The notes under the pieces: model-generated
Told to the model about the DNA's origin: nothing
Seen by the model: the letters and a program-made list of their open reading frames with translations, nothing else
The model's database searches: none
Made by a program: the position numbers and the translations under genes
Shown here: piece after piece, positions 4,139-28,559 of the stretch
Numbering within the stretch: position 1 is the first letter of the stretch
How the letters are laid out: every line of letters begins with the position of its first letter
Source: Candidatus Moranbacteria bacterium GW2011_GWC2_37_8
Lineage (GTDB): Bacteria > Patescibacteriota > Minisyncoccia > Moranbacterales > GWC2-37-73
DNA: 42,702 nucleotides
Direction: 5' to 3'
Assembly (NCBI GenBank): GCA_000992165.1
Contig: LBTS01000001.1
Span: forward strand, 705-43,406

Positions 4139-4271
4139 TAATCAAGAATTATGAATCATTAAAAATTCAATAATCCTTGTTTATCTTTTTATTTTTACTT
4201 CTTACTTTTTATTATAACTTATTTTATCTTTTTATTCCATGAATCATAATTCGTGATTCGTGATTCATGAG
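4130..4271. repeat. intergenic word repeats, GAATCAT/ATGATTC family
   Basis: GTGAATCATTA / ATGAATCATTA at 4130-4161. CATGAATCATAATTCGTGATTCGTGATTCATGA at 4239-4270. Upstream of pilM. Confidence 0.7.
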
Positions 4272-4273
4272 TT

Positions 4274-5779
4274 CTAAAGCTCATTCCAAAGATCTATCGT
4301 ATAGTATACATCACTAGGAAAAAATGGTGGTGGATTCATGTATAAAAAATTATCATATTCTATATTCTTAACTTGAAAACCGACTTTGTCTGTGCCATTA
4401 CAATCTTTTGAAGCAGTAAACTCTATGAATTTATTTGAAACGACTGAGCCATACAAATCTAGTCTGTTTTTTTGAACTTCACATCCACCTCCACAACAAT
4501 GGGGATTAAAATCCTGCTTACCAATCATTCCATCCTTAGCAACCATGGCGGCATCAATTTCCAAATCATCGCAATCAGCCCCACAATTTTTCTTTTCACT
4601 AGTTAGAAGTATATTTCGCTTAGCAATAAGCCCTACAGCATCAGTGCCATCCCTGTTGGTATATCTCAAATTTCCACTTCCGATATAGATATCGCCAACG
4701 CCTTCTCCTGCAGCTATTGTCACCCTGTCCCCATCAACCGTTCCGTCAACCCAAACATTTCCACCCACAAAAATTATTCCGTCATCGGGAATAGTCTTTG
4801 TTTGTTTTGTAGCGGCATCTTCATTCTTAATGTCATTGGAATTATTCTTTACATCCTTAACTGTCACGATATCAAATTGTCCATCAGTGCGAAGTGTGAG
4901 ATGTTTTCCAGCTTTACCAGCTGGAACATTAAAATAACAATGATCATCCAAACAATTATTAACTATCGTATCATTGGGAGCTTGCGCATATTTTTTCATC
5001 ACATTAAGATCGACAGCTATACCTGCGAAATCCTTCTGCGGAACAGGGAATTTTTTTCCACCAAGAAATACGCAGCTACTTTTATCTGCGTTATATTCGC
5101 AATTTGGAAGTGGAAATACGCCAAGAGGTTGCGAACTCCAAACACCAACATGGTCCTGACCAGTAATCGGATCGAAATATGTCGAAGATCCAGCATAAAC
5201 TCTGCCATGAGATATGCCATCAAAACGGACTCCGGTGTTGCTCATAATGCGTCCTTTAATATCCCAGTTTGAATCGAAATTTGCATACTCGTTACTAAGA
5301 ACTACATAGTCACTCCATGAAGTCCTCCTGAACCTGACTTTTATTTTTTTCTTAATATTAGGATTATCCAAAGAGGAAGCTTCGAATTCAACAACTATTG
5401 GTGTGTTTGTCGAGACAGTAGCGTTTGTTATAAGTGCACTACAATAGCCTATCGTCGTACCAGCGCTTGTCTTCACATCCCATGTGTAGGGCTCATCCAA
5501 TCCGCGCGGTTTTGGATCAGTCTCGCTCCAAAATTCAGCCACTTCTTCAATTGTATGGCCATCCGTGTTATGAGCAAGATACCAGCGATATTCATTAGAA
5601 CAAGCTTCAGCCATTTGAAAGGCTTTCTCTCTGGCAACCGCGTCATAGCCTGACCTTGCCTGAGAAGCAATCAACTGAACCAAACCAACCAAAAGAATTG
5701 AAACGAATGTCACAATTCCAAGTGCATAAACAAGCACCGATCCTTTGTATGTTTTATTTCGCATAAATTTAAGACTCAT
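4274..5779 (-). CDS. large PilX-N-like pilus-associated protein
   Basis: N-terminal hydrophobic segment GSVLVYALGIVTFVSILLVGLVQLIAS without a G/F cleavage motif, as in PilX_N. Cys-rich C-terminal region. Overlaps the upstream pseudopilin gene. Confidence 0.6.
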   Translation of the reverse strand: MSLKFMRNKTYKGSVLVYALGIVTFVSILLVGLVQLIASQARSGYDAVAREKAFQMAEACSNEYRWYLAHNTDGHTIEEVAEFWSETDPKPRGLDEPYTWDVKTSAGTTIGYCSALITNATVSTNTPIVVEFEASSLDNPNIKKKIKVRFRRTSWSDYVVLSNEYANFDSNWDIKGRIMSNTGVRFDGISHGRVYAGSSTYFDPITGQDHVGVWSSQPLGVFPLPNCEYNADKSSCVFLGGKKFPVPQKDFAGIAVDLNVMKKYAQAPNDTIVNNCLDDHCYFNVPAGKAGKHLTLRTDGQFDIVTVKDVKNNSNDIKNEDAATKQTKTIPDDGIIFVGGNVWVDGTVDGDRVTIAAGEGVGDIYIGSGNLRYTNRDGTDAVGLIAKRNILLTSEKKNCGADCDDLEIDAAMVAKDGMIGKQDFNPHCCGGGCEVQKNRLDLYGSVVSNKFIEFTASKDCNGTDKVGFQVKNIEYDNFLYMNPPPFFPSDVYYTIDLWNEL

Positions 5780-6380
5780 TTAAATTTCGAAGTTCAACGA
5801 CAGATTCAAGATTGACATTTTCAGGAGCGACAATTGGTCTGATATTTATCCAGAGATGCAAGCGCACCAAGCGTGTATCATACGCAGTAGGAGAAGACAT
5901 GGCATCTTCAGTAAGGATTGGAAATCTGTTGTCATAATATGAAAAGAAAGGTTTTGATGTTGTTAGGTTAGTAACATAATTCAAAAGCACTTCAACAGTT
6001 GCATCATCTGCCGCATATGAACCATCAACAAATTTTGTGACTCCTTTTTTAAGTTTTTCTTCATTATCGACAAAGTAATGGACTCTCTCAGCACTGCCAT
6101 CACCATCCTCATCCCTGTAAACTATCATGGAATACTCCTCAGTTTCTTTGATTGGGTAAGATCCATCATCACCTTGCCTTATAGCTCGCAGCTCATGCAC
6201 AAGTTGAGTGATGACTCTTGAAGCTGAAGCAGTCGCAGTCGCTTGTTCAAGAACATATCCTTTATAATTCCAAGCTCTTGCTGATAGAAGCGTGAATGCG
6301 ACCATGCCCAAGCTTAAGATAGTTATTGCGACAAGCAATTCAACCAATGACATCCCCTTTTTTATACTGTGTTTTTTCAT
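5769..6380 (-). CDS. prepilin-type N-terminal cleavage/methylation domain protein (pseudopilin)
   Basis: Class III signal KKG|MSLVELLVAITILSLGM. ATGA overlap with the upstream gene. Confidence 0.8.
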   Translation of the reverse strand: MKKHSIKKGMSLVELLVAITILSLGMVAFTLLSARAWNYKGYVLEQATATASASRVITQLVHELRAIRQGDDGSYPIKETEEYSMIVYRDEDGDGSAERVHYFVDNEEKLKKGVTKFVDGSYAADDATVEVLLNYVTNLTTSKPFFSYYDNRFPILTEDAMSSPTAYDTRLVRLHLWINIRPIVAPENVNLESVVELRNLNES

Positions 6381-7747
6381 AATGGATTAATTGTAATATC
6401 TTTTTCCGTAAGATTAGACACTATTATATCATCCTCCTTAGTCTCATATCCCGCCGCCTGCACAGTTATATGATATTGCACATTTTGAAGAGGAGCAACG
6501 ATATCTCTTGGAAAATATACCTGCCCGAATTGATCCGTAATTAAAGTCTGTTCATAGGAAAGACTTTCATTTTCAACCGTCACGGTTGCATCTGAAATAG
6601 GTGTTGGCGGCATTGTTGCCGGTATATCAGTATAGTCAACAACTCTTAAAAACAATGCTGGCGTATCTTTAGGCACTAAAATAGCATTGACATCCGTAAC
6701 GACTCCGGGATTAGCAGTAAAGATTGTAGATTTAAGACCGAATGATGGCTCAACTTTCCAAAATTTATAACCATCATTATTAGTTGATGTCAGATATTCA
6801 AAAGTGTATTCACCGAAGCTTTCATCACTAAAAATAAATGAGCCAGCTGCGTCACTGCTGTGATTAGTTTTAACATAAGAATAAACAGGACCAGTATTAC
6901 CAAGAATTCGGCCACCCTCCAGCGAAAAATCAATATTTCCAATACTATTCCCCAAGGGATCAACAGTCCTGAGCTGCAAAGAGGCTGCCAGGTCAAAATA
7001 TATTGTCTTTGAGGAAATTCCAGCCAAGGTGACACTACCATGCAAATCTATCGGCTCATAAGAATTGACGGGATATGGAGGCATAGTGTCAACTGGATAA
7101 TATCCATTCTTTCTCACGATAATCTTGTATTTGTTGTTTCCTATCGCATATCCCGGAAGATAAACCTTTCCATTATCTAAAGTGTCTGTCGTATGCAGCA
7201 AAGCATCAGTGTCGGCATCTCTGATTTCAACCCTAGCACCTTCAACTGGTATTCCTGCGCTACTTATTATATTGATGCTTAAAATTCCTCCATTATATAA
7301 TTCCTCTGTTCCAGGCGGAGCGATATGTGAATACATGGTAATCTTCTTGGTTTCTCCTCCACTCAACCAACTGACTATCACCTCCACATGCTTATAATCG
7401 CCATCTTTCAAGTCAGACGAAGGATCGTTTTGGTCAGGATTATCATAATCGTCATTGGAATACGTGATATTAGTAACTACATTAAAACTAACACTACTCC
7501 TATCGATAGTCTTATTATTTTTAATTGGACCATCTTCAGTGGATTCGAGATTTTCATAGGCAACATTACGCAGTATTTCAAACTGTTCATTGGCAACTTG
7601 CGAAGCGGAAATTCTAGCCTTAGCATCTCTTAAAACGTTAGCACCACTGGCGAAAGTCCTATAAAAAGTAACGACCACTATCACCACAATCAAAGAAAAA
7701 ATCAAGGCTTCCACTAAAGTGAAACCTTTTTTATTTTTTATTTCCAT
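6377..7747 (-). CDS. large prepilin-type protein with carboxypeptidase-regulatory-like beta-sandwich repeats
   Basis: MEIKNKKG|FTLVEALIF prepilin signal, start taken at the Met at 7747. Segments such as GIPVEGARVEIRD...TDTLDNGKVYLP...YKIIVRKNGYY resemble CarboxypepD_reg domains. Confidence 0.75.
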   Translation of the reverse strand: MEIKNKKGFTLVEALIFSLIVVIVVVTFYRTFASGANVLRDAKARISASQVANEQFEILRNVAYENLESTEDGPIKNNKTIDRSSVSFNVVTNITYSNDDYDNPDQNDPSSDLKDGDYKHVEVIVSWLSGGETKKITMYSHIAPPGTEELYNGGILSINIISSAGIPVEGARVEIRDADTDALLHTTDTLDNGKVYLPGYAIGNNKYKIIVRKNGYYPVDTMPPYPVNSYEPIDLHGSVTLAGISSKTIYFDLAASLQLRTVDPLGNSIGNIDFSLEGGRILGNTGPVYSYVKTNHSSDAAGSFIFSDESFGEYTFEYLTSTNNDGYKFWKVEPSFGLKSTIFTANPGVVTDVNAILVPKDTPALFLRVVDYTDIPATMPPTPISDATVTVENESLSYEQTLITDQFGQVYFPRDIVAPLQNVQYHITVQAAGYETKEDDIIVSNLTEKDITINPL

Positions 7748-7842
7748 CTCCCTGATAACCATAAGTATAGTATTAACTAGAATGACAAAATGTAGACACG
7801 AGGCAAGCTTCGGCGAATTAACCTCAGAGGGATTAAAAAATT

Positions 7843-9069
7843 CTATTTAATATTATCCAGCATGCTATACATCGGCATAAGCATAGCTACCGCAAAAAAC
7901 CCAACAGCCGCTCCAATGACAACCATAAGCAAAGGTTCTATGACAGCTGAAAGATTTTTTGTTATCTGGTCAACTTCATCTTCATAAAATTCAGCCAACT
8001 GCAGCAGCACTACTTCCGTCTTACCAGTCTCTTCTCCAACTTGAACAATTTGCGAAACCAAAACTGGAAAAATGTCACCATGATCAGAAAGAATCTTGCT
8101 TAGACTCACACCTTTTTGAATATCCTCCACACTGCCGATTAAAACTTGTTGGTAGTAATGATTAGTTAGAGTCCTGGAAATAATTTTTAGGGCATCCACG
8201 GCGCCAACGCCACTCTTAAGAAGTGAGCTATAAATCCTAGCGAAACGTGCGCAATTCATCTGCTTTATTAATGGACTAAAAATTGGAAATTTGATTGCAA
8301 CCCAACTTACCGTTTTCTTACCACTCGGCTGTCTTAGGAAATATTGCAAAAATATCGCAACTGCAAAAAAGACAACTGCCACCATTAACCCATTGTTTTT
8401 CAATAAATTACTCATATCAACAATGAATTGTGTCATTGCTGGAAGTTTCGCATTCATATCTTTAAAGACACCCATCAATTTTGGAAGCACATATGTCAAC
8501 ATGATAATTCCAATAATAAACATCACCGTCAAAATAACCGCTGGATAAATCATGGCCCCTTTAACCTTACTTTTCAAGTCATGCTCCTTCTCTAGTTGTA
8601 CTGCCACGATTTTCAAAACTTCATCAAGATTTCCAGCTGTTTCTCCGACTCTAACCATATTAACAAAAAGTTCACCAAAAATATTTACATATTTTTCAAG
8701 ACCCTCACTCAAAGATTTCCCACTCTGTATTTCCTCATCAATATCTAAAAGAATTTTTTTAAATGATTTATTTTCTGTCTGAAGTGCCAAATTATTAACA
8801 GCGCGAGAAACCGTAAGTCCTGAAGCAACCATGATGCTTAAATTTCTTGCAAAAACCATTTTCTCTTTAAGTGGAATGGAAATGAATTTATCAAAAAAAT
8901 TAGTCTTTCCAGCTATTTTTGCTTCTTCTTCCTTAACTAATGAAATTGAAGTCACCAAATAACCTTCAGCTCGAAGTTGTTGAGCAACATTTTTTTCATC
9001 CTGAGCAACTATCTCTCCACCCTTAGTTTGCCCACTATAACTTTTGGCAGTATAAATAAATTTTGGCAC
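7843..9069 (-). CDS. pilC: type IV pilus platform protein PilC (T2SS F family)
   Basis: 408 aa with duplicated GspF-type domains and three TM regions. Sits directly downstream of pilB. Confidence 0.9.
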   Translation of the reverse strand: MPKFIYTAKSYSGQTKGGEIVAQDEKNVAQQLRAEGYLVTSISLVKEEEAKIAGKTNFFDKFISIPLKEKMVFARNLSIMVASGLTVSRAVNNLALQTENKSFKKILLDIDEEIQSGKSLSEGLEKYVNIFGELFVNMVRVGETAGNLDEVLKIVAVQLEKEHDLKSKVKGAMIYPAVILTVMFIIGIIMLTYVLPKLMGVFKDMNAKLPAMTQFIVDMSNLLKNNGLMVAVVFFAVAIFLQYFLRQPSGKKTVSWVAIKFPIFSPLIKQMNCARFARIYSSLLKSGVGAVDALKIISRTLTNHYYQQVLIGSVEDIQKGVSLSKILSDHGDIFPVLVSQIVQVGEETGKTEVVLLQLAEFYEDEVDQITKNLSAVIEPLLMVVIGAAVGFFAVAMLMPMYSMLDNIK

Positions 9070-9116
9070 GGACTTACTTACAACTTATAACTAATAACTT
9101 GCAACTCCTGGGTTGC

Positions 9117-9151
9117 GTTATTGGTTATTGGTTATTGGTTATTGGTTATTG
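9117..9151. repeat. five perfect tandem copies of heptamer GTTATTG
   Basis: Read directly. Lies between the pilB stop (9154-9156) and the pilC start (9069). Confidence 0.95.
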
Positions 9152-9153
9152 GT

Positions 9154-10902
9154 TTATTCTTTTGTTACTCTCATAACTTCTTCCAGAGAAGTTATGCCTG
9201 ATGCAGCTTTAATAAATCCATCCTCGCCCATGGTTTGCATCCCTTTTTCTCTTGCCCGCTTCTCTATATCATCGGATGATGCGTTAGATGTAATCAACTT
9301 ACCTATTTCCTCGTCCATTTCCAATACTTCATAAATACCTTGTCGTCCTTTATATCCCTCATTTGAACATTGTTCGCAACCTTTCGGTCTGTAAAAATCA
9401 ATATTTTTCCAATTGCTTTTAGCGTTTATTTCAGAAGCAAGTTGCGGAGTATCCTTAAGCATTTTCAAGATTTCATCCATATTAAAATTCGAACTTAAGG
9501 CAGCCACATCTTTTTCGTCCAGCTTATAACTAACTTTGCATTCATTGCAAAGTTTTCGTACAAGCCTTTGACCGATAACCACATTAACTGTTGATGCCAC
9601 CAAAAATGCTTCCGCACCCATATCCAAAAGACGAGGTAGTGTTCCTGCGGCGCTATTCGTATGCAAAGTTGAAAGTACTAAATGTCCAGTCATAGCGGCT
9701 TCTACTGCGATTTGCATGGTTTCGCTATCGCGAATTTCTCCAACCATAATAATATCAGGATCTTGACGCAAAAGACTTCTAAGTGCAGCTGCAAAAGTCA
9801 TTCCGATTTTTGCATTCACTTGAGTTTGATTGACTCTCATCATGCGATATTCGACCGGATCTTCTACTGTGCTAATATTCACCTCTGTCGTGTTCAAAAT
9901 ATCCATAACAGTATACAAAGTCGTTGTTTTTCCGCTGCCAGTAGGACCAGTAACTAAAACCATTCCATTAGGACGCTTGATGTGTCTATGCACGACTTCC
10001 AAGGCATTACCAGTAAGTCCCATTTTCTCCAAAGTCAAACCTTTTGATGTTTCATCAAGCAAACGCATAACTATTTTTTCACCTTCGAAAACAGGCAGAA
10101 TACTAACACGAAATGAAATCCTGTAGCCTTCCTTTTCTATTTTAAAACGTCCATCTTGAGGCAAGCGGTGTTCATCCAATTTCAAACTAGAAAGCACTTT
10201 GATACGAGCAACCAATCCTTCCATGACTTGCCGCGGAAGGGTCATAGCGTCGTGCAAGACGCCATCAATACGATACCTTACGCGTACTTCTTTTTCATCA
10301 GGCTCAATATGTATATCACTGGCTGATTGTAAGATTGCATGCTTAAGCAAAGTATCAACAATTCGTACAATCGGAAGATCTTGCGCTATTTTTTCCAAAT
10401 CATCAGCCTCTTCGCCAACCGCAACATTGTCAGAATCTTTACTGATGATATCTCCGAATTCCGCCTTAAGACTTTTCTCATATTGCCTTAAAATTGCCTT
10501 GATACTTTCATCACTAGTTAAACATGGCACAATTTTAAGACCAGTTTTTTTTCTGATAAAATCTATTGTTTGAATATCTTCAGGATTTTTCATGGCGACC
10601 TTCAGATCATTGCCATCCTTTTCAAAAGCTACGATTCCATATTTTTTAGCAATCGGCTCTGGAATTATCTGCAAGATATCAGCCGTAATTGTTTCTTTTT
10701 CAAGATTTACATACGGAATGCCAAGTATATAAGAATAAAGTTTACGAAGTTCAGTTTCGCTAACCAATTTTTTTTCCAACAATAAATCACCCAGCTTTTG
10801 GTTGGTTTCATTAGCAAGTTTAAAATTTTCATCGACAACTGCAACTTCCAGCAAATTTGAGTCGAGTAAAAATTCCTTGAGTTGTTTATTTTCAATCCTC
10901 AT
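9154..10902 (-). CDS. pilB: type IV pilus assembly ATPase PilB (GspE family)
   Basis: Walker A GPTGSGKTTTLY, GspE-type N-terminal domain, C-terminal CxxC pair (CNEC...CEQC). Confidence 0.95.
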   Translation of the reverse strand: MRIENKQLKEFLLDSNLLEVAVVDENFKLANETNQKLGDLLLEKKLVSETELRKLYSYILGIPYVNLEKETITADILQIIPEPIAKKYGIVAFEKDGNDLKVAMKNPEDIQTIDFIRKKTGLKIVPCLTSDESIKAILRQYEKSLKAEFGDIISKDSDNVAVGEEADDLEKIAQDLPIVRIVDTLLKHAILQSASDIHIEPDEKEVRVRYRIDGVLHDAMTLPRQVMEGLVARIKVLSSLKLDEHRLPQDGRFKIEKEGYRISFRVSILPVFEGEKIVMRLLDETSKGLTLEKMGLTGNALEVVHRHIKRPNGMVLVTGPTGSGKTTTLYTVMDILNTTEVNISTVEDPVEYRMMRVNQTQVNAKIGMTFAAALRSLLRQDPDIIMVGEIRDSETMQIAVEAAMTGHLVLSTLHTNSAAGTLPRLLDMGAEAFLVASTVNVVIGQRLVRKLCNECKVSYKLDEKDVAALSSNFNMDEILKMLKDTPQLASEINAKSNWKNIDFYRPKGCEQCSNEGYKGRQGIYEVLEMDEEIGKLITSNASSDDIEKRAREKGMQTMGEDGFIKAASGITSLEEVMRVTKE

Positions 10903-11059
10903 CTGTATTTATCTTATTTTTTGTATTTGTTTTCAATATTAACCAAACGAAAATACGAATTTATACAAATTTACGAATGTACAAAATTTGTATATTTGTC
11001 CCTAGGATAAGCCTGGGGCAAATAAATTTGTAATATATTTGTAATTTGTTTGAGTTAAT

Positions 11060-11434
11060 TTATTTTATATTGAGAATCTCTTTAATCTTAGCCGTAACCT
11101 CCTCAAGCTTATAATCTGCTTTAACTAGATATGTAGTAGCGCCCATCTCCAAAGCCTTCTCAACATCTGCAATACTTCCTAAATTTGTCAAAAGCACAAT
11201 TGGAATATGTTTAGATTCTTCATTTGCCTTCACTTCCTGAAGCACCTGATAACCGTCTTTTTTAGGCAAAACAATGTCCAACAATATTAAATCTGGTTTT
11301 TCAGAAATCGCCATCTTCACTCCCTCTTCACCATCAAGTGCGCACATGACTTCAAAACTTTCCGCAGTCAGATAAGAACTCAATGCTTTTTGCAAGACTG
11401 TATCATCTTCAATAATCAATAGCCTCTTGTTCAT
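11060..11434 (-). CDS. stand-alone response-regulator receiver protein
   Basis: 124 aa, CheY-like: LIIEDD, phospho-acceptor context LILLDIVLP, LTNLG, conserved K in YLVKA. Confidence 0.9.
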   Translation of the reverse strand: MNKRLLIIEDDTVLQKALSSYLTAESFEVMCALDGEEGVKMAISEKPDLILLDIVLPKKDGYQVLQEVKANEESKHIPIVLLTNLGSIADVEKALEMGATTYLVKADYKLEEVTAKIKEILNIK

Positions 11435-22042: not shown

Positions 22043-22050
22043 GTTTATGC

Positions 22051-22101
22051 CGAGGTTGCGGGAGTCAATCCGAACTTATTTGATTGAATATGGGTATTAA
22101 A
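22051..22101 (+). repeat. left copy of a ~50-bp direct repeat bracketing the abiE cassette
   Basis: CGAGGTTGCGGGAGTCAATCCGAACTTATTTGATTGAATATGGGTATTAAA matches 23549-23600 with about 5 substitutions and 1 indel. Confidence 0.85.
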
Positions 22102-22109
22102 TTCAGCTA

Positions 22110-22138
22110 TTGCCTTATTTGTTATAATTTGCTATAAT
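22110..22138 (+). promoter_or_regulatory. promoter of the abiEi-abiEii operon
   Basis: TTGCCT, 17-nt spacer, TATAAT (22133-22138), 40 nt upstream of the abiEi ATG. Confidence 0.6.
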
Positions 22139-22178
22139 GTAACTAGGAAGGGTTTTTAATACCCCCTTAAGTAAACAT

Positions 22179-22775
22179 ATGGATAATAAACCAGCAAAAA
22201 GAGCCTATTTAGAGGCAATATTAAGATCAGCTCGAACAGTCTTTTCTTCAAAAGACGCTGCTTTGATGTGGAATGAGAATAATGTGGCCACTATCAATGA
22301 CAGATTAAAGAAATATGTTAAAACCGGAAAATTGATCAGAGTGCATCAAGGTTTTTATGCTAAAGATGAAAATTATGACCGCATGGAGTTAGCATCTAAA
22401 ATATATACCCCCTCTTATATCAGTTTTGAAACCGTTTTGACTCGCGAAGGAATCAATTTCCAATATTACGGAAATATTTTTATTGCATCCTATTTGAATC
22501 GCGAAATTGAAGCCAATGGTCAGAAAATATCCTATGTACGCATGAAAAATTATGTATTGAGCAATGCAGTAGGAATTGAACATCGAAATGATGTCGCTTG
22601 GGCAACCAAGGAGCGCGCCTTTTTAGATCGATTATATGTCACCAAGGAATATCACTTTGATAATTTGAACCCATTGGATTGGGACAAGGTTTTTGAAATT
22701 GTGCCAATCTATAACAACAAGCGATTAGAAAAGAAGGTTAAAGAATACTATACTAATTTTGTAAACAAAAAGTAA
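22179..22775 (+). CDS. abiEi: AbiEi-family (type IV TA) antitoxin-like transcriptional regulator
   Basis: 198 aa with an N-terminal wHTH-like region (FSSKDAALMW...LKKYVKTGKLIRVHQGFY). Sits 1 nt upstream of an AbiEii-family gene. Confidence 0.65.
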   Translation: MDNKPAKRAYLEAILRSARTVFSSKDAALMWNENNVATINDRLKKYVKTGKLIRVHQGFYAKDENYDRMELASKIYTPSYISFETVLTREGINFQYYGNIFIASYLNREIEANGQKISYVRMKNYVLSNAVGIEHRNDVAWATKERAFLDRLYVTKEYHFDNLNPLDWDKVFEIVPIYNNKRLEKKVKEYYTNFVNKK

Positions 22776-22776
22776 T

Positions 22777-23469
22777 ATGTTTAATTACGCAAAACACAAA
22801 AGCATTCTATTGCAGATTCTAAAGGATGTGTACACCGACACCACCATTTCACCTTATCTCGGTTTCAAGGGTGGGACAGCTGCCTTGTTATTTTATGGAT
22901 TGAATAGAAACTCTGTCGATTTGGATTTTGATCTTTTAGACGACACTAAGGAAAAAGAAGTTTTTGAAAAGTTGCAAAAAATAGTTACCAAGTACGGCAC
23001 GGTTGAAGATTCACATATAAAACGTTTCAATCTGCTTAATGTCATTTCATACGCAACTGGGGCACAGAAAATTAAGGTTGAGGTTAACCGGAGGCAGTTC
23101 GGTTCTCACTATGAAATAAAAACATTTCTGGGAATTTCCATGTTGGTTATGACTCCGCCTGACATGTTTGCTCATAAGCTCATGGCTATGTATGAACGAA
23201 TTGGCAAAACAAGTCGGGATATTTTTGATGTGTATTATTTCTACAAACAAGGCTGGGAAATAAACAAAGAGATTGTCGAGCAAAGAGCGGAAATGTCATT
23301 CAAAGAATTGCTACTCAAATGCGTTGGAATGCTGGAAAAAACAGACAACAAACATATTCTTGATGGCTTAGGAGAATTCCTGAGCGAACAACAAAAAGAT
23401 TGGTCTCGCGCCAAACTTAAAAGTGAAACGATATTCTTTTTGAAAATGGCAGTTGAAAATGAGAAATAG
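22777..23469 (+). CDS. abiEii: AbiEii/AbiGii-family nucleotidyltransferase toxin
   Basis: LGFKGGTAALLFYGLNRNSVDLDFD motif typical of DUF1814/AbiEii nucleotidyltransferases. 230 aa. Confidence 0.8.
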   Translation: MFNYAKHKSILLQILKDVYTDTTISPYLGFKGGTAALLFYGLNRNSVDLDFDLLDDTKEKEVFEKLQKIVTKYGTVEDSHIKRFNLLNVISYATGAQKIKVEVNRRQFGSHYEIKTFLGISMLVMTPPDMFAHKLMAMYERIGKTSRDIFDVYYFYKQGWEINKEIVEQRAEMSFKELLLKCVGMLEKTDNKHILDGLGEFLSEQQKDWSRAKLKSETIFFLKMAVENEK

Positions 23470-23548
23470 ATTGCAATCTTCGAACCCATAATTCTTGCTT
23501 TAAATAAAACGAAAACAGACTCCTTTGCAGAAGTCTGTCCTCACTTGT

Positions 23549-23600
23549 CGAGGTTGTGGGAATCGATACGAACTTATTTGATTGAACATGGGTATTGAAA
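23549..23600 (+). repeat. right copy of the ~50-bp direct repeat bracketing the abiE cassette
   Basis: CGAGGTTGTGGGAATCGATACGAACTTATTTGATTGAACATGGGTATTGAAA. Confidence 0.85.
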
Positions 23601-24137: not shown

Positions 24138-24151
24138 GGGGCGCAGGGATT
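24138..24151. repeat. left copy of the 14-bp direct repeat (putative att core)
   Basis: GGGGCGCAGGGATT is identical to 28490-28503 inside tRNA-Pro. Confidence 0.8.
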
Positions 24152-24300
24152 TACGCGTCACTCTTTCGTCGACACTCAAGAGTTCCTTGTCCTGGGCAGC
24201 GCTGAATGCTCCTATGGTCGCATCCATCGACGCACACTGCGTTATTGTTCTGCTGAACAATAACTTGTTTAGCTTCTGCCCGTTCGAATCCTTGCGCAAG

Positions 24301-24353
24301 ATACATAAGAAAAACAGGATGACTCAAAAAGTCATCCTGTTTTTCTTATGTAT
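24301..24353. repeat. perfect 24-bp inverted repeat (hairpin, 5-nt loop)
   Basis: ATACATAAGAAAAACAGGATGACT-CAAAA-AGTCATCCTGTTTTTCTTATGTAT. Confidence 0.95.
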
Positions 24354-24474
24354 GTCGAGTGTCGTAGGTCGTGTTAGAACGGCAATTCAAGAGTCAAATG
24401 CTTACATCCATATACCCGACTTGAAGGAGTTTGCTTGAAAAATTCACTGTATCATATCTTATAGTTTGCGTATG

Positions 24475-24498
24475 CTGATGTTGACCATCAGTTTTTTT
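24475..24498 (+). terminator. intrinsic terminator on the plus strand
   Basis: CTGATG-TTGAC-CATCAG followed by TTTTTTT. No convincing protein gene lies upstream on this strand. Confidence 0.6.
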
Positions 24499-24626
24499 GT
24501 TTTTCAATATGTGGGGTGCTTATGTTTCAATGAAGTCAAGCTTTGGAGTTAAAATCACTTGCTCCCATCTCAGCTAAATTTCTAATATGTAATAAGACTT
24601 ACTATAAATAGTTAGCAATAAAAAAA

Positions 24627-24650
24627 AGCCAGAGTTTTTACGCTCTGGCT
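24627..24650 (-). terminator. terminator of the 286-aa orphan gene
   Basis: AGCCAGAG / CTCTGGCT stem and an 8-nt T-run on the minus strand, about 40 nt after the stop at 24691. Confidence 0.7.
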
Positions 24651-24690
24651 ATTATGCGAATTTCTTGCTTAGTCTTTTCAGGACATCTTT

Positions 24691-25551
24691 CTAATTATTC
24701 TGAAAAAACAATTCGTTTACTTTCTCTATAACTTTTTTTGAGTCATCTTCTGAAAGCAAAGCTCTTTTTTCAAGAAGGTCTTCCCATCTTGAATTGATAT
24801 CCCATCTCTGTTGTTCAGCAGTCTCAACATAGGAAGCTCCAACCGCCGTATGACCTCCCGTAACCTTGCCCTTTTCGTCTCTTGTTTTTTCCCAGCCTGT
24901 AATGGTTTTATCCTCAAGTCCATCGAGTAATTGTGGGAATAAACCGTTTGTTGACCTCAAGGAATAAAATATATTTCCAATCAAAACACTGCTAGGTTTA
25001 GTTTTTTCTAGTGACGAAATAAAATCAACAAACACTCGGTAGTTAGGATGACCTTCGATATATTTAAGCACTACTCTCATGTTATCACTGCGTTCTAAAA
25101 CTGGTTCAGGGTTTTCATTTACAAGTTTATCCCAAAAGGCTTTTGCAACTTCTTGATTTTTTGCACGGTCAAGGGATGCAACAATGAAAGAAAAATTTTC
25201 CAGTTCATGGTCAAATGTACCCGTGTTGTATTTATCCAGCAAAGGTTTCAATGATGTTTTGTTTATCATTTCTACTAACTGCTTAGGGTCTGTTTCAAGC
25301 CCCTCACGATTACCATTCATCACATCATTCATAAGCTGATTAAACTTACGAAACGCATTGATACGTTCATTTACATTTTTTTCAATGCCTGCTTCATTTG
25401 CAATAGTTTCTACAACCTCTTTAAGCTCTTCCTGTTTCTTTATAAGTTGTTCTCTCTCATTGCTCATCTTGCTTTCCTCTGGAGACATCATTGACTTTGC
25501 CTTGAACTCTTCTTTGATGGTTGGATTGTATCCCATTTTTTCATTTTCCAT
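24691..25551 (-). CDS. hypothetical 286-aa protein (element cargo)
   Basis: AAGGGGG Shine-Dalgarno 9 nt upstream of the ATG, plus its own terminator. Charged coiled-coil-like N-terminus. No domain recognised. Confidence 0.7.
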   Translation of the reverse strand: MENEKMGYNPTIKEEFKAKSMMSPEESKMSNEREQLIKKQEELKEVVETIANEAGIEKNVNERINAFRKFNQLMNDVMNGNREGLETDPKQLVEMINKTSLKPLLDKYNTGTFDHELENFSFIVASLDRAKNQEVAKAFWDKLVNENPEPVLERSDNMRVVLKYIEGHPNYRVFVDFISSLEKTKPSSVLIGNIFYSLRSTNGLFPQLLDGLEDKTITGWEKTRDEKGKVTGGHTAVGASYVETAEQQRWDINSRWEDLLEKRALLSEDDSKKVIEKVNELFFQNN

Positions 25552-25707
25552 AGTTTTGTTCCCCCTTGTTAAATTACTTATTTATTTTTTGATTATTATG
25601 GCTTCATTGAGCTCATTTACATCCATTATAGCATGCTTTACGGCTTTTGTCTATCCTTTCATCATATTTACTGATATAGTTTGTGTATATCAATAAAATA
25701 CATTAGC

Positions 25708-26328
25708 ATGAAAAAATTAAAATTAGATTCAGATTTTATTTGGATACTTAAAACAATCAAGCATATCAGCAATGCAAACAATGGCAATGCGTTTGAATAT
25801 CTCTTTGATGACGTGCTAACCCTTGAAGGTGCGCCGGCTGTAAGAAGCATCCATGAAGGCACGATTAGCCAGTTTGAGGCAATGGGTGTGATTAGCGCAC
25901 AGGAAATAGGCAATGCCTTACATGATGGAGTATTCAAATTGGAGGGATTCAAGATTCAAATTTTGAAATCCAAGTTTGATGAAATTCAAAAAGAACTATC
26001 CATTCAAAAATCAGCAGTAAAAACTTATACTTCTCATTTTTTCGACAGCAAGGCGCTAATTAAAATCAACACGCAAGACATTCCATTGCCTGCATATGCC
26101 AATGAACACCTTCTTTGCAGAGTTATGTTTGAATACATGATAGGAGAACCAGTGGATTGGTCTATTATTTTTGAAAAAATGACAGGTGATGAGCCCAAGG
26201 ATAAAAATAAGAATTCAAGAATGGTCAGAGATACCATGCATGCAGTCAATGAACGAATCCATGAGCTTGCAAAAACAGAAAGAGACCTTTTTGAATGGAA
26301 AAACAAATGCATCAAAAGACTTTTTTGA
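25708..26328 (+). CDS. hypothetical protein, possible C-terminal winged-helix DNA-binding region
   Basis: Divergent from the 286-aa gene. The first ATG is at 25708. The tail SRMVRDTMHAVNERIHELAK..LFEWKNKCIKRLF resembles OmpR-type wHTH ends only weakly. Confidence 0.55.
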   Translation: MKKLKLDSDFIWILKTIKHISNANNGNAFEYLFDDVLTLEGAPAVRSIHEGTISQFEAMGVISAQEIGNALHDGVFKLEGFKIQILKSKFDEIQKELSIQKSAVKTYTSHFFDSKALIKINTQDIPLPAYANEHLLCRVMFEYMIGEPVDWSIIFEKMTGDEPKDKNKNSRMVRDTMHAVNERIHELAKTERDLFEWKNKCIKRLF

Positions 26329-26332
26329 AAAT

Positions 26333-26359
26333 GTGAGTCAGTGAGTCACAGGTGAGTCA
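26333..26359. repeat. three copies of the word GTGAGTCA
   Basis: GTGAGTCA at 26333-26340, 26341-26348 and 26352-26359, just after the stop at 26328. Confidence 0.9.
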
Positions 26360-26440
26360 CATCCACAAATTATACCATTGAGCCAAGATTTATATTTTGG
26401 CTTTTTTGTTTTGCAAAACATTACCGCCGAACCCATACTC

Positions 26441-26644
26441 ATGCAATTCAGTGATGAATCAATAGAAAAATTTCGAATGCTCTACTCTCAGCGTTTCGGC
26501 AAAGACCTTGACCGCAAGACTGCTTTTGAATATGCACAGAAACTTTTTCGAGCCATTGAACTCACTTATGTTCAGATGTCAGTTGCAGACTTCAAAAATT
26601 TGCAAAAGCGTCGCAAAGAAACTAAGCCAGATTCTCACCATTAG
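26441..26644 (+). CDS. hypothetical small protein (67 aa from the first ATG)
   Basis: The ORF track starts at a TTG at 26378. First ATG gives MQFSDESIEKF. No Shine-Dalgarno and no recognised domain. Confidence 0.4.
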   Translation: MQFSDESIEKFRMLYSQRFGKDLDRKTAFEYAQKLFRAIELTYVQMSVADFKNLQKRRKETKPDSHH

Positions 26645-26865
26645 CAAAATTTCGCTACCTAAGCCATTTTCTCAGCTTTAGCACTCATCCATGCATCACG
26701 CAGTCTATAGCCATTCACCGCAGTCATAATCCAAATACTCTCAATAAGTCCTATTGCTAACCATTCATCAAATACATTTATGCGAGCCAGAGCTTCTCCA
26801 AAATCATATCAGATACGACGTTAGAAATAATTCTTAACCTTGGGCAGTATTGTGTATAAAATGGC

Positions 26866-26894
26866 TTGTATAAGCCTAAATATCGTCCTATAAT
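26866..26894 (+). promoter_or_regulatory. promoter of the serine recombinase gene (would give a leaderless mRNA)
   Basis: TTGTAT (26866-26871), 17-nt spacer, TATAAT (26889-26894). The ATG lies 6 nt after the -10 box. Confidence 0.55.
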
Positions 26895-26900
26895 ACAAGC

Positions 26901-28517
26901 ATGAGCAAAAACGAACAAAAAATCCACTATATCCTGTATGCACGCAAGTCATCCGAAGATGAAAGGCGCCAAGTGCAGTCTATTGAAAACCAGATTCAAA
27001 TAATGTTGGACAAAGCCAAGGCATTAAAATTGCATATCGTTGATGTTTTGCAGGAATCAAAATCAGCCAGAAAGCCAGGCAGACCAGTCTTCAATGAGAT
27101 GATGGAAAGAATCAAACGGGGTGAAGCGGATGGAATTTTAACATGGCATGCAAATCGTCTTTCAAGAAATCCATTGGATGCGGGCAATGTTCAATGGGCA
27201 CTGCAAAATGGAACTATCCGCTCAATCATGACAAATGACAGGGAATATTTACCAGAAGACAATTCTCTCATGCTTGGAATGGAATGTTCCATGTCTGAAC
27301 AATACAGCAAAGACTTAAGCAAAACCGTAAATAGGGGGCTTCTCAGAAAAGCGAAGGAGGGCTGGCTTCCAAATCTTCCACCAACTGGATATATCAATGA
27401 CAAAGTGAACAAGATAATCATCAATGACCCCGAGCGTTTTCATTTGGTTCGCAAAATTTGGGACTTGATGCTTACTGGAAACTATACTCCTCCGCAGATT
27501 CTCAAGATTGCCAATGATGAATGGGGATTCCGCACACGAAAATATGAAAAGTCTGGTGGTGGCAAACTTTCAAGAAGTGGAATCTATAAAATGCTTACCA
27601 ATGGATTTTATCTTGGCTTTTTTTACAAGAAAGGTGAACTTTTTGAAGGTAGCCATGAAAGGATGATAACTGTTGATGAATGGGACAGAGTACAGACACT
27701 CTTGGGACGCAAAGGCAAACCAAGACCAAAGAAACACTCCTTCGCTTTCACCGGTGCGATTCGTTGCGCCGAATGTCAATGTCTTATTACAGCAGAAACA
27801 AAGAAAAAAATCATCAGGAAGACTGGTGAAATTCGCAGTCACACCTACTACCATTGCACCCACAAACGAACGGACATGAAATGTTCACAGCGTAAAAACA
27901 CCTTAGAGTCAGGACTAGAACTAATGATAGAGCAAGAGTTAGACAAATATACGATACTACCAGAGTTTAAAGAATGGGCAATGGAAGAATTAAACAAGGC
28001 TAATGACAACGAGATTGAAACAAGGACTAAGATGTATGAAATGCTACATAAAGCCTATACAGAGGCACAGAAGCAACTAGACACGCTCACAAAGATGAGA
28101 TACAGAGACCTAATCAATGACGAGCAGTTTCTTAGGGAGAGCAGAATACTTGAAGCTGAAATAGCTAAGCTAAAAGAGAAATTAGGCACCACAGAGGCAC
28201 GAGCGAAGCAATGGTTGGAGCTTACCGAAAAAACCTTTGAATTCGCTACTTATGCCAGAAATGCATTCCTCAAGGGTAATGACACGCTCAGAAAAGAATT
28301 GCTTTTGACTTTAGGTCAGAACCAAATACTTGGAAACCAAATACTCACTCTACAAGCGTATGAATGGTTTGTTCCTATCAGTGAAGACTATCCAAAACTT
28401 AAAGCTGAATATGTGAAGGTTAGAACCAATAAAAAACTATCTACAAAAGCAAAAACAGATGCTCTCACATCTGTTCGTGCACACTGGTCGGGGCGCAGGG
28501 ATTCGAACCCTGTCTAA
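26901..28517 (+). CDS. large serine recombinase / integrase
   Basis: Resolvase catalytic domain (YILYARKSSEDERRQVQSIENQ, HANRLSRN), recombinase domain, zinc ribbon (CAECQC...YYHCTHK..C) and a long coiled coil. The last ~11 codons are tRNA-Pro sequence. Confidence 0.9.
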   Translation: MSKNEQKIHYILYARKSSEDERRQVQSIENQIQIMLDKAKALKLHIVDVLQESKSARKPGRPVFNEMMERIKRGEADGILTWHANRLSRNPLDAGNVQWALQNGTIRSIMTNDREYLPEDNSLMLGMECSMSEQYSKDLSKTVNRGLLRKAKEGWLPNLPPTGYINDKVNKIIINDPERFHLVRKIWDLMLTGNYTPPQILKIANDEWGFRTRKYEKSGGGKLSRSGIYKMLTNGFYLGFFYKKGELFEGSHERMITVDEWDRVQTLLGRKGKPRPKKHSFAFTGAIRCAECQCLITAETKKKIIRKTGEIRSHTYYHCTHKRTDMKCSQRKNTLESGLELMIEQELDKYTILPEFKEWAMEELNKANDNEIETRTKMYEMLHKAYTEAQKQLDTLTKMRYRDLINDEQFLRESRILEAEIAKLKEKLGTTEARAKQWLELTEKTFEFATYARNAFLKGNDTLRKELLLTLGQNQILGNQILTLQAYEWFVPISEDYPKLKAEYVKVRTNKKLSTKAKTDALTSVRAHWSGRRDSNPV

Positions 28518-28559
28518 ATGATCCCAAATCACTCGTGCTACCGTTGACACCACGCCCCG
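28485..28559 (-). tRNA. tRNA-Pro (anticodon UGG) with encoded CCA
   Basis: 75-nt cloverleaf: acceptor CGGGGCG/CGCCCCG (C1-G72), anticodon loop TTTGGGA, T-arm CAGGG-TTCGAAT-CCCTG, A73 then CCA. Confidence 0.9.
28490..28503. repeat. right copy of the 14-bp direct repeat (putative att core) inside tRNA-Pro
   Basis: GGGGCGCAGGGATT is the complement of tRNA-Pro T-loop end, T-stem 3' strand and acceptor positions 66-71. Confidence 0.8.

Follow-up and report, generated by a model that had tools for sequence, protein, structure and literature searches.

The 42,702-nucleotide stretch of Candidatus Moranbacteria bacterium GW2011_GWC2_37_8 analyzed here (contig LBTS01000001.1, positions 705 to 43,406; at its full length, the window) carries a probable mobile element of 4.35 kb, which spans positions 24138 to 28503, is bounded by a 14-bp direct repeat and lies at the 3' end of a tRNA-Pro(UGG) gene. 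Three open reading frames (ORFs) fall within these repeats, encoding proteins of 286, 206, and 67 amino acids (aa; the last is called p67 below), and an initial annotation had taken them for a single orphan cargo module. That grouping did not hold: the 206-aa and 67-aa genes travel with a large serine recombinase across elements with differing cargo. Very probably the three genes fall into two parts, a control core of the element and, separate from it, the 286-aa cargo gene. The solid result of this work is that two of the three orphans are now to be classed with the genes that control the element. The fuller organization that we favor, and consider probable as a whole, is a control and recombination operon accompanied by an independent one-gene cargo slot.

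The features on which the argument turns are the following.

24138..24151, no strand: left 14-bp direct repeat (putative attL core), the left boundary of the element, from an exact-repeat search
24691..25551, minus strand: 286-aa orphan cargo gene encoding an all-alpha protein (ORF list, family of eight, AlphaFold2 model)
25708..26328, plus strand: 206-aa element-core regulator with a modeled C-terminal winged helix at residues ~105-206 (family, synteny, AlphaFold2, Foldseek)
26333..26360, plus strand: palindromic box GTGAGTCA(G/C) in three copies, with start positions 26333, 26341, and 26352, candidate operator of the 206-aa protein
26380..26410, plus strand: intrinsic terminator hairpin after the boxes, from hairpin prediction
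26441..26644, plus strand: p67, a small helical protein, element-core gene (homologs)
26901..28517, plus strand: large serine recombinase of 538 aa (Resolvase, Recombinase, Zn_ribbon_recom; phrog_95 integrase)
28490..28503, no strand: right 14-bp direct repeat (putative attR core), within the acceptor/T arm of the tRNA-Pro gene and within the recombinase ORF, from a repeat search
28485..28559, minus strand: tRNA-Pro(UGG), the probable integration target (tRNA call; RF00005, 54.8 bits)

A regulator-recombinase pair shared with sister elements

Relatives of the 206-aa protein share 34-48% identity and a conserved gene order. The sister loci that encode them lie on metagenome contigs or in genomes of Parcubacteria, Saccharibacteria, and Yanofskybacteria. 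In all seven loci with enough downstream DNA (L001, L003, L006, L007, L008, L009, and L020), the homolog lies upstream of a large serine recombinase; an eighth, L021, ends before any recombinase could appear. Identity of these recombinases to that of the window runs from 64 through 56, 37, 26, and 25 to 21% (six loci; the L020 enzyme was not compared). The window's own recombinase matches PF00239 (9.3e-20), PF07508 (1.2e-7), and PF13408 (2.3e-6) in Pfam and the phrog_95 integrase in PHROGs (9.8e-66). The complement of the tRNA-Pro 3' end supplies the last 11 codons of its ORF. Indeed, the 3' end of the recombinase ORF overlaps a minus-strand tRNA in five of the loci:

28485-28517 of the window: tRNA-Pro
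4491-4586 of L001: tRNA-Gln
11299-11361 of L006: tRNA-His
5901-5961 of L007: tRNA-Gln
11514-11585 of L009: tRNA-Ala

Because both the synteny and the tRNA overlap recur in the sister loci, the 206-aa gene and the recombinase form, as judged from gene order, the ancient and conserved core of a tRNA-targeting element family. With the att core inside the recombinase gene, excision would be expected to alter the tail of the protein. In the window and L001, the C-terminal residues encoded by the T-arm complement read RDSNP; the tail of the L020 recombinase includes ...GWDSNPRP... (WDSNP), and aragorn calls no tRNA there.

What varies is the cargo, which occupies the corresponding divergent arm in every sister locus except L020, where it lies between regulator and recombinase:

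L001: membrane protein and lipoprotein
L003: type I restriction-modification (RM)
L006: type III RM, a SocA/HigB-like (toxin-antitoxin) pair, and an HTH_17 gene
L007: DNA methylase, located at the edge of its contig
L008: type I RM
L009: Tsp45I endonuclease and methylase
L020: AlwI endonuclease and two methylases
L021: HsdM/HsdS and ATPases

RM genes are thus present in seven of the eight. No relative of the 286-aa protein was found in any sister element, each of which carries other cargo; with its own position inside the repeats, this upholds the earlier description of the 286-aa gene as cargo on a small mobile element. The defense-like context noted at the same time was borne out insofar as the sister arms hold mostly RM or toxin-antitoxin genes, which makes a search for a new defense function in this slot reasonable.

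Some sister elements also encode candidates for replication proteins: a Phage_CRI (inovirus-type G2P) gene at 3053-4261 of L007, by Pfam match; a Phage_CRI-like gene at 10196-11314 of the reverse complement of L020, by similarity only; and an HTH_36/RepL-like gene at 8954-9508 of L008. On this evidence, part of the family probably consists of plasmids that integrate or of replicons of the rolling-circle type. Unlike these three, the element of the window lacks a gene of this kind.

Boundaries and occurrence of the element

The 14-bp repeat GGGGCGCAGGGATT has one copy at 24138 and one at 28490, the latter within the tRNA gene. It is the only exact repeat of at least 11 nt that the tRNA-Pro 3' region has elsewhere in the window, and genome-wide the 14-mer matches at the attL and attR sites only. 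At sister loci, an att repeat search returned weak matches only, such as 10 of 11 bases at 1209-1219 of L006; serine recombinases leave no long repeats. A comparison across the insertion site was limited by the available contigs: that of the nearest relative stops at nth, at the locus itself, and the sensor gene is present only in a distant relative.

The element is 99.7-100% identical in at least 10 groundwater assemblies, including GCA_000992985.1; SRR1658468, SRR3309152, and ERZ27254729 are examples of groundwater samples with it. A 4,323-bp Logan contig (L026), found in two samples, covers window positions 24194-28516, nearly the whole element, starting 43 nt inside the left repeat and ending 13 nt beyond the right one. 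We considered its ends as a mark of excision and rejected this, as 24194 and 28516 do not match the 14-bp repeat. Polymorphism of the site may lie behind the branching of the assembly graph close to the two att sites.

The left arm is without genes of its own:

24152..24626, no strand: non-coding left arm of the element, holding a palindrome; no ORF with homologs

The palindrome, at 24301-24353, is a perfect 24-bp inverted repeat (100% complementary) with a 5-nt loop; within the loop region is the sequence TGACTCA, which half-matches the box described below. Neither arm nor palindrome matched an Rfam family above threshold.

The 286-aa gene is a rare orphan in the cargo slot

The 286-aa gene is equipped for its own expression. 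The strong Shine-Dalgarno sequence and the terminator credited to it by the initial annotation were both found in the sequence, along with a promoter candidate:

24627..24650, minus strand: terminator-like hairpin, an 8-bp stem (5 GC pairs) ahead of a T8 run
25561..25567, minus strand: Shine-Dalgarno AAGGGGG (the reverse complement of CCCCCTT, read from the sequence)
25625..25653, minus strand: sigma-70-like promoter, TAGACA-17-TATAAT with an extended -10 TG; 11/12 matches, a consensus match only

The gene is 100% conserved over at least 10 assemblies and is therefore not decaying. Like the 206-aa and 67-aa ORFs, it is real: homologs of each were found elsewhere. Those of the 286-aa protein are few. 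An exhaustive phmmer search of 1.84 billion cluster representatives gave seven true relatives (E 5.6e-27 to 4.6e-9), so that the family has eight members at 50% clustering; an eighth match, P0009, a 2051-aa protein of E/K-rich repeats, was set aside as a low-complexity artifact. A word-indexed search of 5.8 billion proteins returned one homolog. Pattern scans found no member in 185,579 GTDB species genomes and none in IMG/VR, an HMM (hidden Markov model) search of 400 genomes sampled from the phylum was likewise negative, and a pattern scan of metagenome contigs found a single locus, L010.

In the alignment of the eight members, residues 1-56 are lineage specific and ~57-286 form the conserved domain. 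R63, H115 (within an FDHELENF motif), N119, K142, E149, and N202 are invariant, and these polar residues point to a possible functional site; they were not recognized as belonging to a known motif. AlphaFold2 models helices throughout (predicted local distance difference test [pLDDT] 70.8, predicted template-modeling score 0.65), consistent with the charged helical N-terminus and structured remainder that had been read from the sequence. The protein is very rare, all-alpha, and cytoplasmic. Searches of Pfam, NCBIfam, and PHROGs gave sub-threshold noise only, and profile searches of the PDB and Pfam gave no match. The fold search was uninformative for this model (best E 0.16 in the PDB and 0.49 in BFVD, template-modeling [TM] scores of at most 0.3), the matches being only designed helical repeats, Get4, proteins resembling tetratricopeptide repeats, and tape-measure proteins.

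L010 shows that the 286-aa family also occurs apart from the rest of the element. Its homolog has no recombinase, no 206-aa neighbor, and no 67-aa neighbor, which counts against the 286-aa gene being one module with the other two. Around this homolog lie TrmB-like regulators, orphan genes, a putative phosphoesterase (by eye), and an apparent dnaG. A check of gene neighborhoods therefore has two outcomes, in that the 206-aa and 67-aa genes co-occur with recombinases and the 286-aa homolog stands without recombinase or known defense genes. On its contig, at 4175-9465, this homolog is part of a run of five genes (95, 232, 198, 329, and 410 aa) without Pfam or PADLOC match, which adjoins two TrmB-like regulators and is about 2 kb from a tRNA-Ser; it may be an uncharacterized island.

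What the 286-aa protein does is suggested by its position only. With RM genes in seven of the eight sister elements, mostly in the matching arm, it is possible, if less than an even bet, that it is a stand-alone protein acting against phage or foreign DNA. We judge it just as likely that it is a passenger outside defense, whether adaptive for the host, selfish for the element, or a chromosomal leftover such as might come from a locus like L010. The passenger reading gains from the failure of PADLOC (0 families at E <= 0.1), PHROGs (0), and the fold search to match the protein, from the absence of its family from IMG/VR, from the cargo of L001, which looks non-defense, and from L010, whose neighborhood holds no mobile-element genes, no PADLOC match, and no known defense genes; the PADLOC and PHROGs results, the cargo of L001, and the neighborhood of L010 also count against a defense role. 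It loses from the RM genes of the sister elements and from the strong expression signals and complete conservation of the gene. A bolder proposal, speculative and in our estimate rather unlikely, is that the 286-aa protein founds a new, extremely rare effector family in which one gene suffices to act against phages or plasmids, carried as the sole cargo of a minimal integrative element, with excision governed by a new OmpR-fold regulator and its operator. The predicted effector would be a novel one, with an unmatched all-alpha fold and a conserved polar cluster (FDHELENF, K142, E149, and N202), which we hold to be equally doubtful.

The 206-aa protein has an OmpR/PhoB-like fold

The ORF is 206 aa long from its ATG and would be 215 aa from a TTG at 25681. 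Upstream lies a promoter candidate that faces away from that of the 286-aa gene:

25671..25699, plus strand: weaker promoter-like site of 9/12 matches, arranged back to back with the 286-aa promoter

Its -10 ends 8 nt ahead of the ATG, which has no Shine-Dalgarno sequence. Both the 206-aa and the 67-aa genes (25671-25708 and 26411-26441) lack a Shine-Dalgarno and have -10-like hexamers just before the ATG, as is also the case in L001, which suggests that the core genes may carry leaderless mRNAs.

Members of the 206-aa family range from 163 to 463 aa, with a variable N-terminal part and a strongly conserved C-terminal region of ~100 residues in which the pattern NEHxLCRVMF...VDWSxIYExMTG...RxVxDAMxAxNxR...LFxWxxK recurs. 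In an AlphaFold2 model built from nine sequences, pLDDT exceeds 90 at residues 105-206, and the topology there is b-b-b-a1-a2-a3-hairpin (strands 109-112, 117-120, and 123-126; helices 132-140, 151-159, and 166-188; strands 195-198 and 201-204). The top Foldseek matches in the PDB are almost all OmpR/PhoB-type DNA-binding domains at a probability of 0.99-1.00, among them RpaA, SaeR, KdpE, VicR, GlnR, CadC, ToxR, AdeR, and PhoB. Against isolated domains, the target-normalized TM score is 0.61-0.74 with a root mean square deviation of 2.5-4.6 A. The C-terminal domain is thus confidently modeled as an OmpR/PhoB-type winged helix, by fold and not by family membership. This bears out the earlier impression of a winged-helix-like tail. 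It also qualifies the statement that none of the three proteins has a recognizable domain, which stands for all three at the level of sequence and fails for the 206-aa protein at the level of fold. Structural comparison of the models was accordingly fruitful for the 206-aa protein and gave no fold match for the 286-aa protein. Searches of Pfam, NCBIfam, PHROGs, and PADLOC gave nothing significant for the 206-aa protein, and the family was not found in IMG/VR, so that it has no link to phages there.

Palindromic boxes form a candidate operator

The boxes GTGAGTCA begin directly after the 206-aa stop codon, and the last two are 11 bp apart. Each box is a palindromic 9-mer, GTGASTCAC, and in the window, L001, L003, and L009 two of them stand at 11-bp spacing between stop codon and terminator, with a third, weaker box another 11 bp upstream in L009. 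In the 126 kb made up by the window and the loci, there are only five box pairs at this spacing, of which four are the sites just named. Other loci carry variants: one strong and one weak box in L006, GACTCGG twice, 11 bp apart, in L007, and boxes spaced by 20 bp in L008. In L020 and L021, which hold the most distant homologs, other short repeats and a terminator occupy the same position. In all sister loci inspected, the repeats are followed by a hairpin and a T-run. Such variation fits what a co-evolving pair of regulator and operator would look like.

The classic target of an OmpR/PhoB-type domain is two short repeats one helical turn apart, as in the pho box. It is because the placement of the boxes is conserved and their spacing has this geometry that we read them as an operator, and on balance we lean toward the 206-aa protein binding them as such.

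Tandem short repeats at helical-turn spacing beside a gene are also what an iteron-binding replication initiator would have, in which case the GTGAGTCAC boxes would be an origin and the element an integrative mini-plasmid that replicates after excision. The N-terminal half of the 206-aa protein, modeled at low confidence, does appear as a second helix/strand unit, TrfA stands at rank 9 of the fold search (probability 0.47), and related elements have replication genes (that of L020 by similarity). However, the confidently modeled domain matches OmpR/PhoB effectors and not the WH1/WH2 domains of Rep proteins, the TrfA match has a TM score of just 0.2-0.26, and no Rep family matches the 206-aa protein. 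There are, moreover, only two or three boxes of 9 bp, placed between stop codon and terminator. In L007, L020 (Phage_CRI and its look-alike), and L008 (HTH_36/RepL), separate Rep candidates lie beside the 206-aa homolog, which is therefore not the initiator there. We regard the replication reading as improbable, and retain the 206-aa protein as a candidate regulator acting on the boxes.

A 1.9-kb metagenome contig (L028) has an identical 206-aa gene, boxes, and terminator and then diverges at about window position 26425. The diverged DNA (1027-1913 of the contig), which has no counterpart in this genome, contains an ORF of 180 aa. The contig is either a mosaic sister element, recombined just past the terminator, or an assembly chimera.

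p67 co-varies with the recombinase

The p67 ORF could be 88 aa long if read from a TTG at 26378; the start at 26441 is supported by the homolog in L006, which begins at the equivalent Met. Homologs were found only in L001 (56% identical), L006 (47%), and L007 (weakly, E 1e-4), and these are the loci with the three recombinases closest to that of the window (64%, 56%, and 37% identity). In other sister elements, the place of p67 is taken by different small genes: DUF5659, SpoVG-like, HTH_17 excisionase-like, or replication candidates. Comparison of p67 with Pfam and PDB profiles gave chance matches only, and NCBIfam, PHROGs, and PADLOC gave nothing significant.

Recombination directionality factors are small proteins that co-vary with the recombinase lineage. 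Since p67 does so, it is a candidate for such a factor; the evidence is circumstantial, consisting of synteny only, and we make the assignment tentatively, at odds below even. A small co-regulator or another kind of recombinase partner is a further candidate role.

Proposed organization of the element

In the organization that we favor, a rightward operon would comprise the 206-aa regulator, the boxes, the terminator, p67, and the large serine recombinase. The regulator would bind the boxes and so set the amount of p67 and recombinase, thereby controlling the decision between integration and excision. Within this scheme, p67 would be a partner specific to the recombinase, most plausibly its directionality factor. 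Leftward, an independently promoted and terminated cargo slot would hold one gene, here that of the 286-aa protein.

Several observations weigh against parts of this proposal. For the regulator, the Foldseek E-values are only 4e-3 to 0.4, from a model built on nine sequences; none of the nine family members matched Trans_reg_C (PF00486) by hmmscan against Pfam at E <= 10, and a profile search of the PDB matched no chain and no response regulator, which is why the winged-helix call is a fold assignment only. The boxes are absent from the divergent promoter region between the 206-aa and 286-aa genes, so that the regulator is not tied to the cargo gene, and their role could alternatively lie with the recombinase, in replication, or in an RNA element. 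Excisionase-like HTH_17 genes in L006, L008, and L020 are alternative candidates for the directionality factor. Finally, the left boundaries of the sister elements are undefined, so that "cargo" at those loci means adjacency only.

That the 286-aa, 206-aa, and 67-aa proteins might act together as one new cargo system, for defense, exclusion, or addiction, is suggested by their compact adjacency, by the back-to-back promoters of the first two, by the lack of a sequence-level family for any of the three, and by the AbiE genes next door, and it is nonetheless highly improbable, as both the 206-aa and the 67-aa gene reappear together with the recombinase in elements of entirely different cargo and the 286-aa family is never found with either outside this element, standing alone in L010. 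A defense family as such drew no support from PADLOC, which matched none of the three. Kinship to regulatory or maintenance genes was found for the 206-aa protein, by fold and synteny, and for p67, by synteny only, and not for the 286-aa protein.

To our knowledge, the CPR (candidate phyla radiation) bacteria, or Patescibacteria, have tiny genomes in which few mobile elements have been described, and a targeted literature search returned no description of this element type in them. The type amounts to a small family of mobile elements in CPR bacteria, previously undescribed and driven by a recombinase. It is recurring and very compact, being built from an OmpR-fold regulator, a putative operator with its terminator, small proteins, and a large serine recombinase whose ORF extends into a tRNA. 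Elements of this type probably ferry RM systems between Moranbacteria, Parcubacteria, Yanofskybacteria, and Saccharibacteria. They offer a putative regulator-operator pair that can be tested and compact recombinases with natural tRNA targets. The 286-aa orphan is a candidate for experimental screening, a lead rather than a finding, and its practical value is speculative.

The neighboring AbiE pair

An AbiEi/AbiEii pair identified by PADLOC at 22179-23469, to which the initial annotation had pointed as context, is indeed a neighbor; it lies outside the repeats at 24138 and 28503 and is for that reason not part of the element. The AbiE cassette is bracketed by an imperfect direct repeat of its own, 54 bp long and 87% identical (22048-22101 and 23546-23599), with only these two copies in the 826-kb genome. 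The repeat bears a loose likeness to a tRNA 3' end in complement and may be an older att remnant. We also considered that its copies might be decayed tRNA ends of a larger composite island; the resemblance is weak, and there are two copies only.

The corresponding contig of GCA_000992985.1 (L023) is identical to the window over 7.8 kb save for a cluster of indels and substitutions upstream of abiEi (2425-2470 of that contig, 22119-22175 of the window), in the promoter/leader region of the gene. This looks like a promoter variant between populations.

Comparison with known systems

The best structural matches to the 206-aa protein, the OmpR/PhoB effector domains (Trans_reg_C, with CadC and ToxR as stand-alone users), share its topology, and the pho box has the same 11-bp paired-repeat geometry as the candidate operator here. 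Unlike the OmpR/PhoB proteins, the 206-aa protein has no receiver domain, no membrane anchor, and no detectable sequence similarity to PF00486; its N-terminal half is variable, and it is encoded on a mobile element beside its putative site.

Large serine recombinases act alongside small accessory proteins in several systems, including ccrAB of SCCmec, XisF of the Anabaena fdxN element with XisH/XisI, and phage integrases. The window's recombinase shares with these the Resolvase, Recombinase, and Zn-ribbon architecture and a small upstream gene. Its best NCBIfam similarities, to XisF (94 bits; family cutoff 375) and Ccr (67 bits; family cutoff 900), stay below threshold, so that it is not an equivalog of either. 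In contrast to the SCCmec, XisF, and phage integrase systems, its ORF runs into the target tRNA, and p67 has no similarity to described directionality factors.

A conserved mobility core with a swappable RM or toxin-antitoxin arm is likewise found in pipolins (PMC11551731) and in Tn7-like cargo (PMC8649781), and orphan genes in such defense-cargo slots serve as leads to new defense systems. Next to these platforms, the elements here are far smaller, at 4-10 kb, differ in their mobility core, and reside in CPR hosts.

Compared by description, the element is akin in concept to the tycheposons of Prochlorococcus and other marine bacteria, which are likewise small, tRNA-targeting cargo elements in streamlined genomes. 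Of the 937 elements in the tycheposon study, 27 use a large serine recombinase; most have tyrosine recombinases, and tycheposons have hallmark genes of their own and cargo given mainly to nutrient acquisition or resembling phage-inducible chromosomal islands (PICI-like) (Hackl et al., bioRxiv 10.1101/2020.12.28.424599). The family described here differs in its hallmarks, which are the OmpR-fold regulator, the boxes with their terminator, and, in part of the family, p67, and in its annotated cargo, which is mostly RM and is carried in CPR bacteria.

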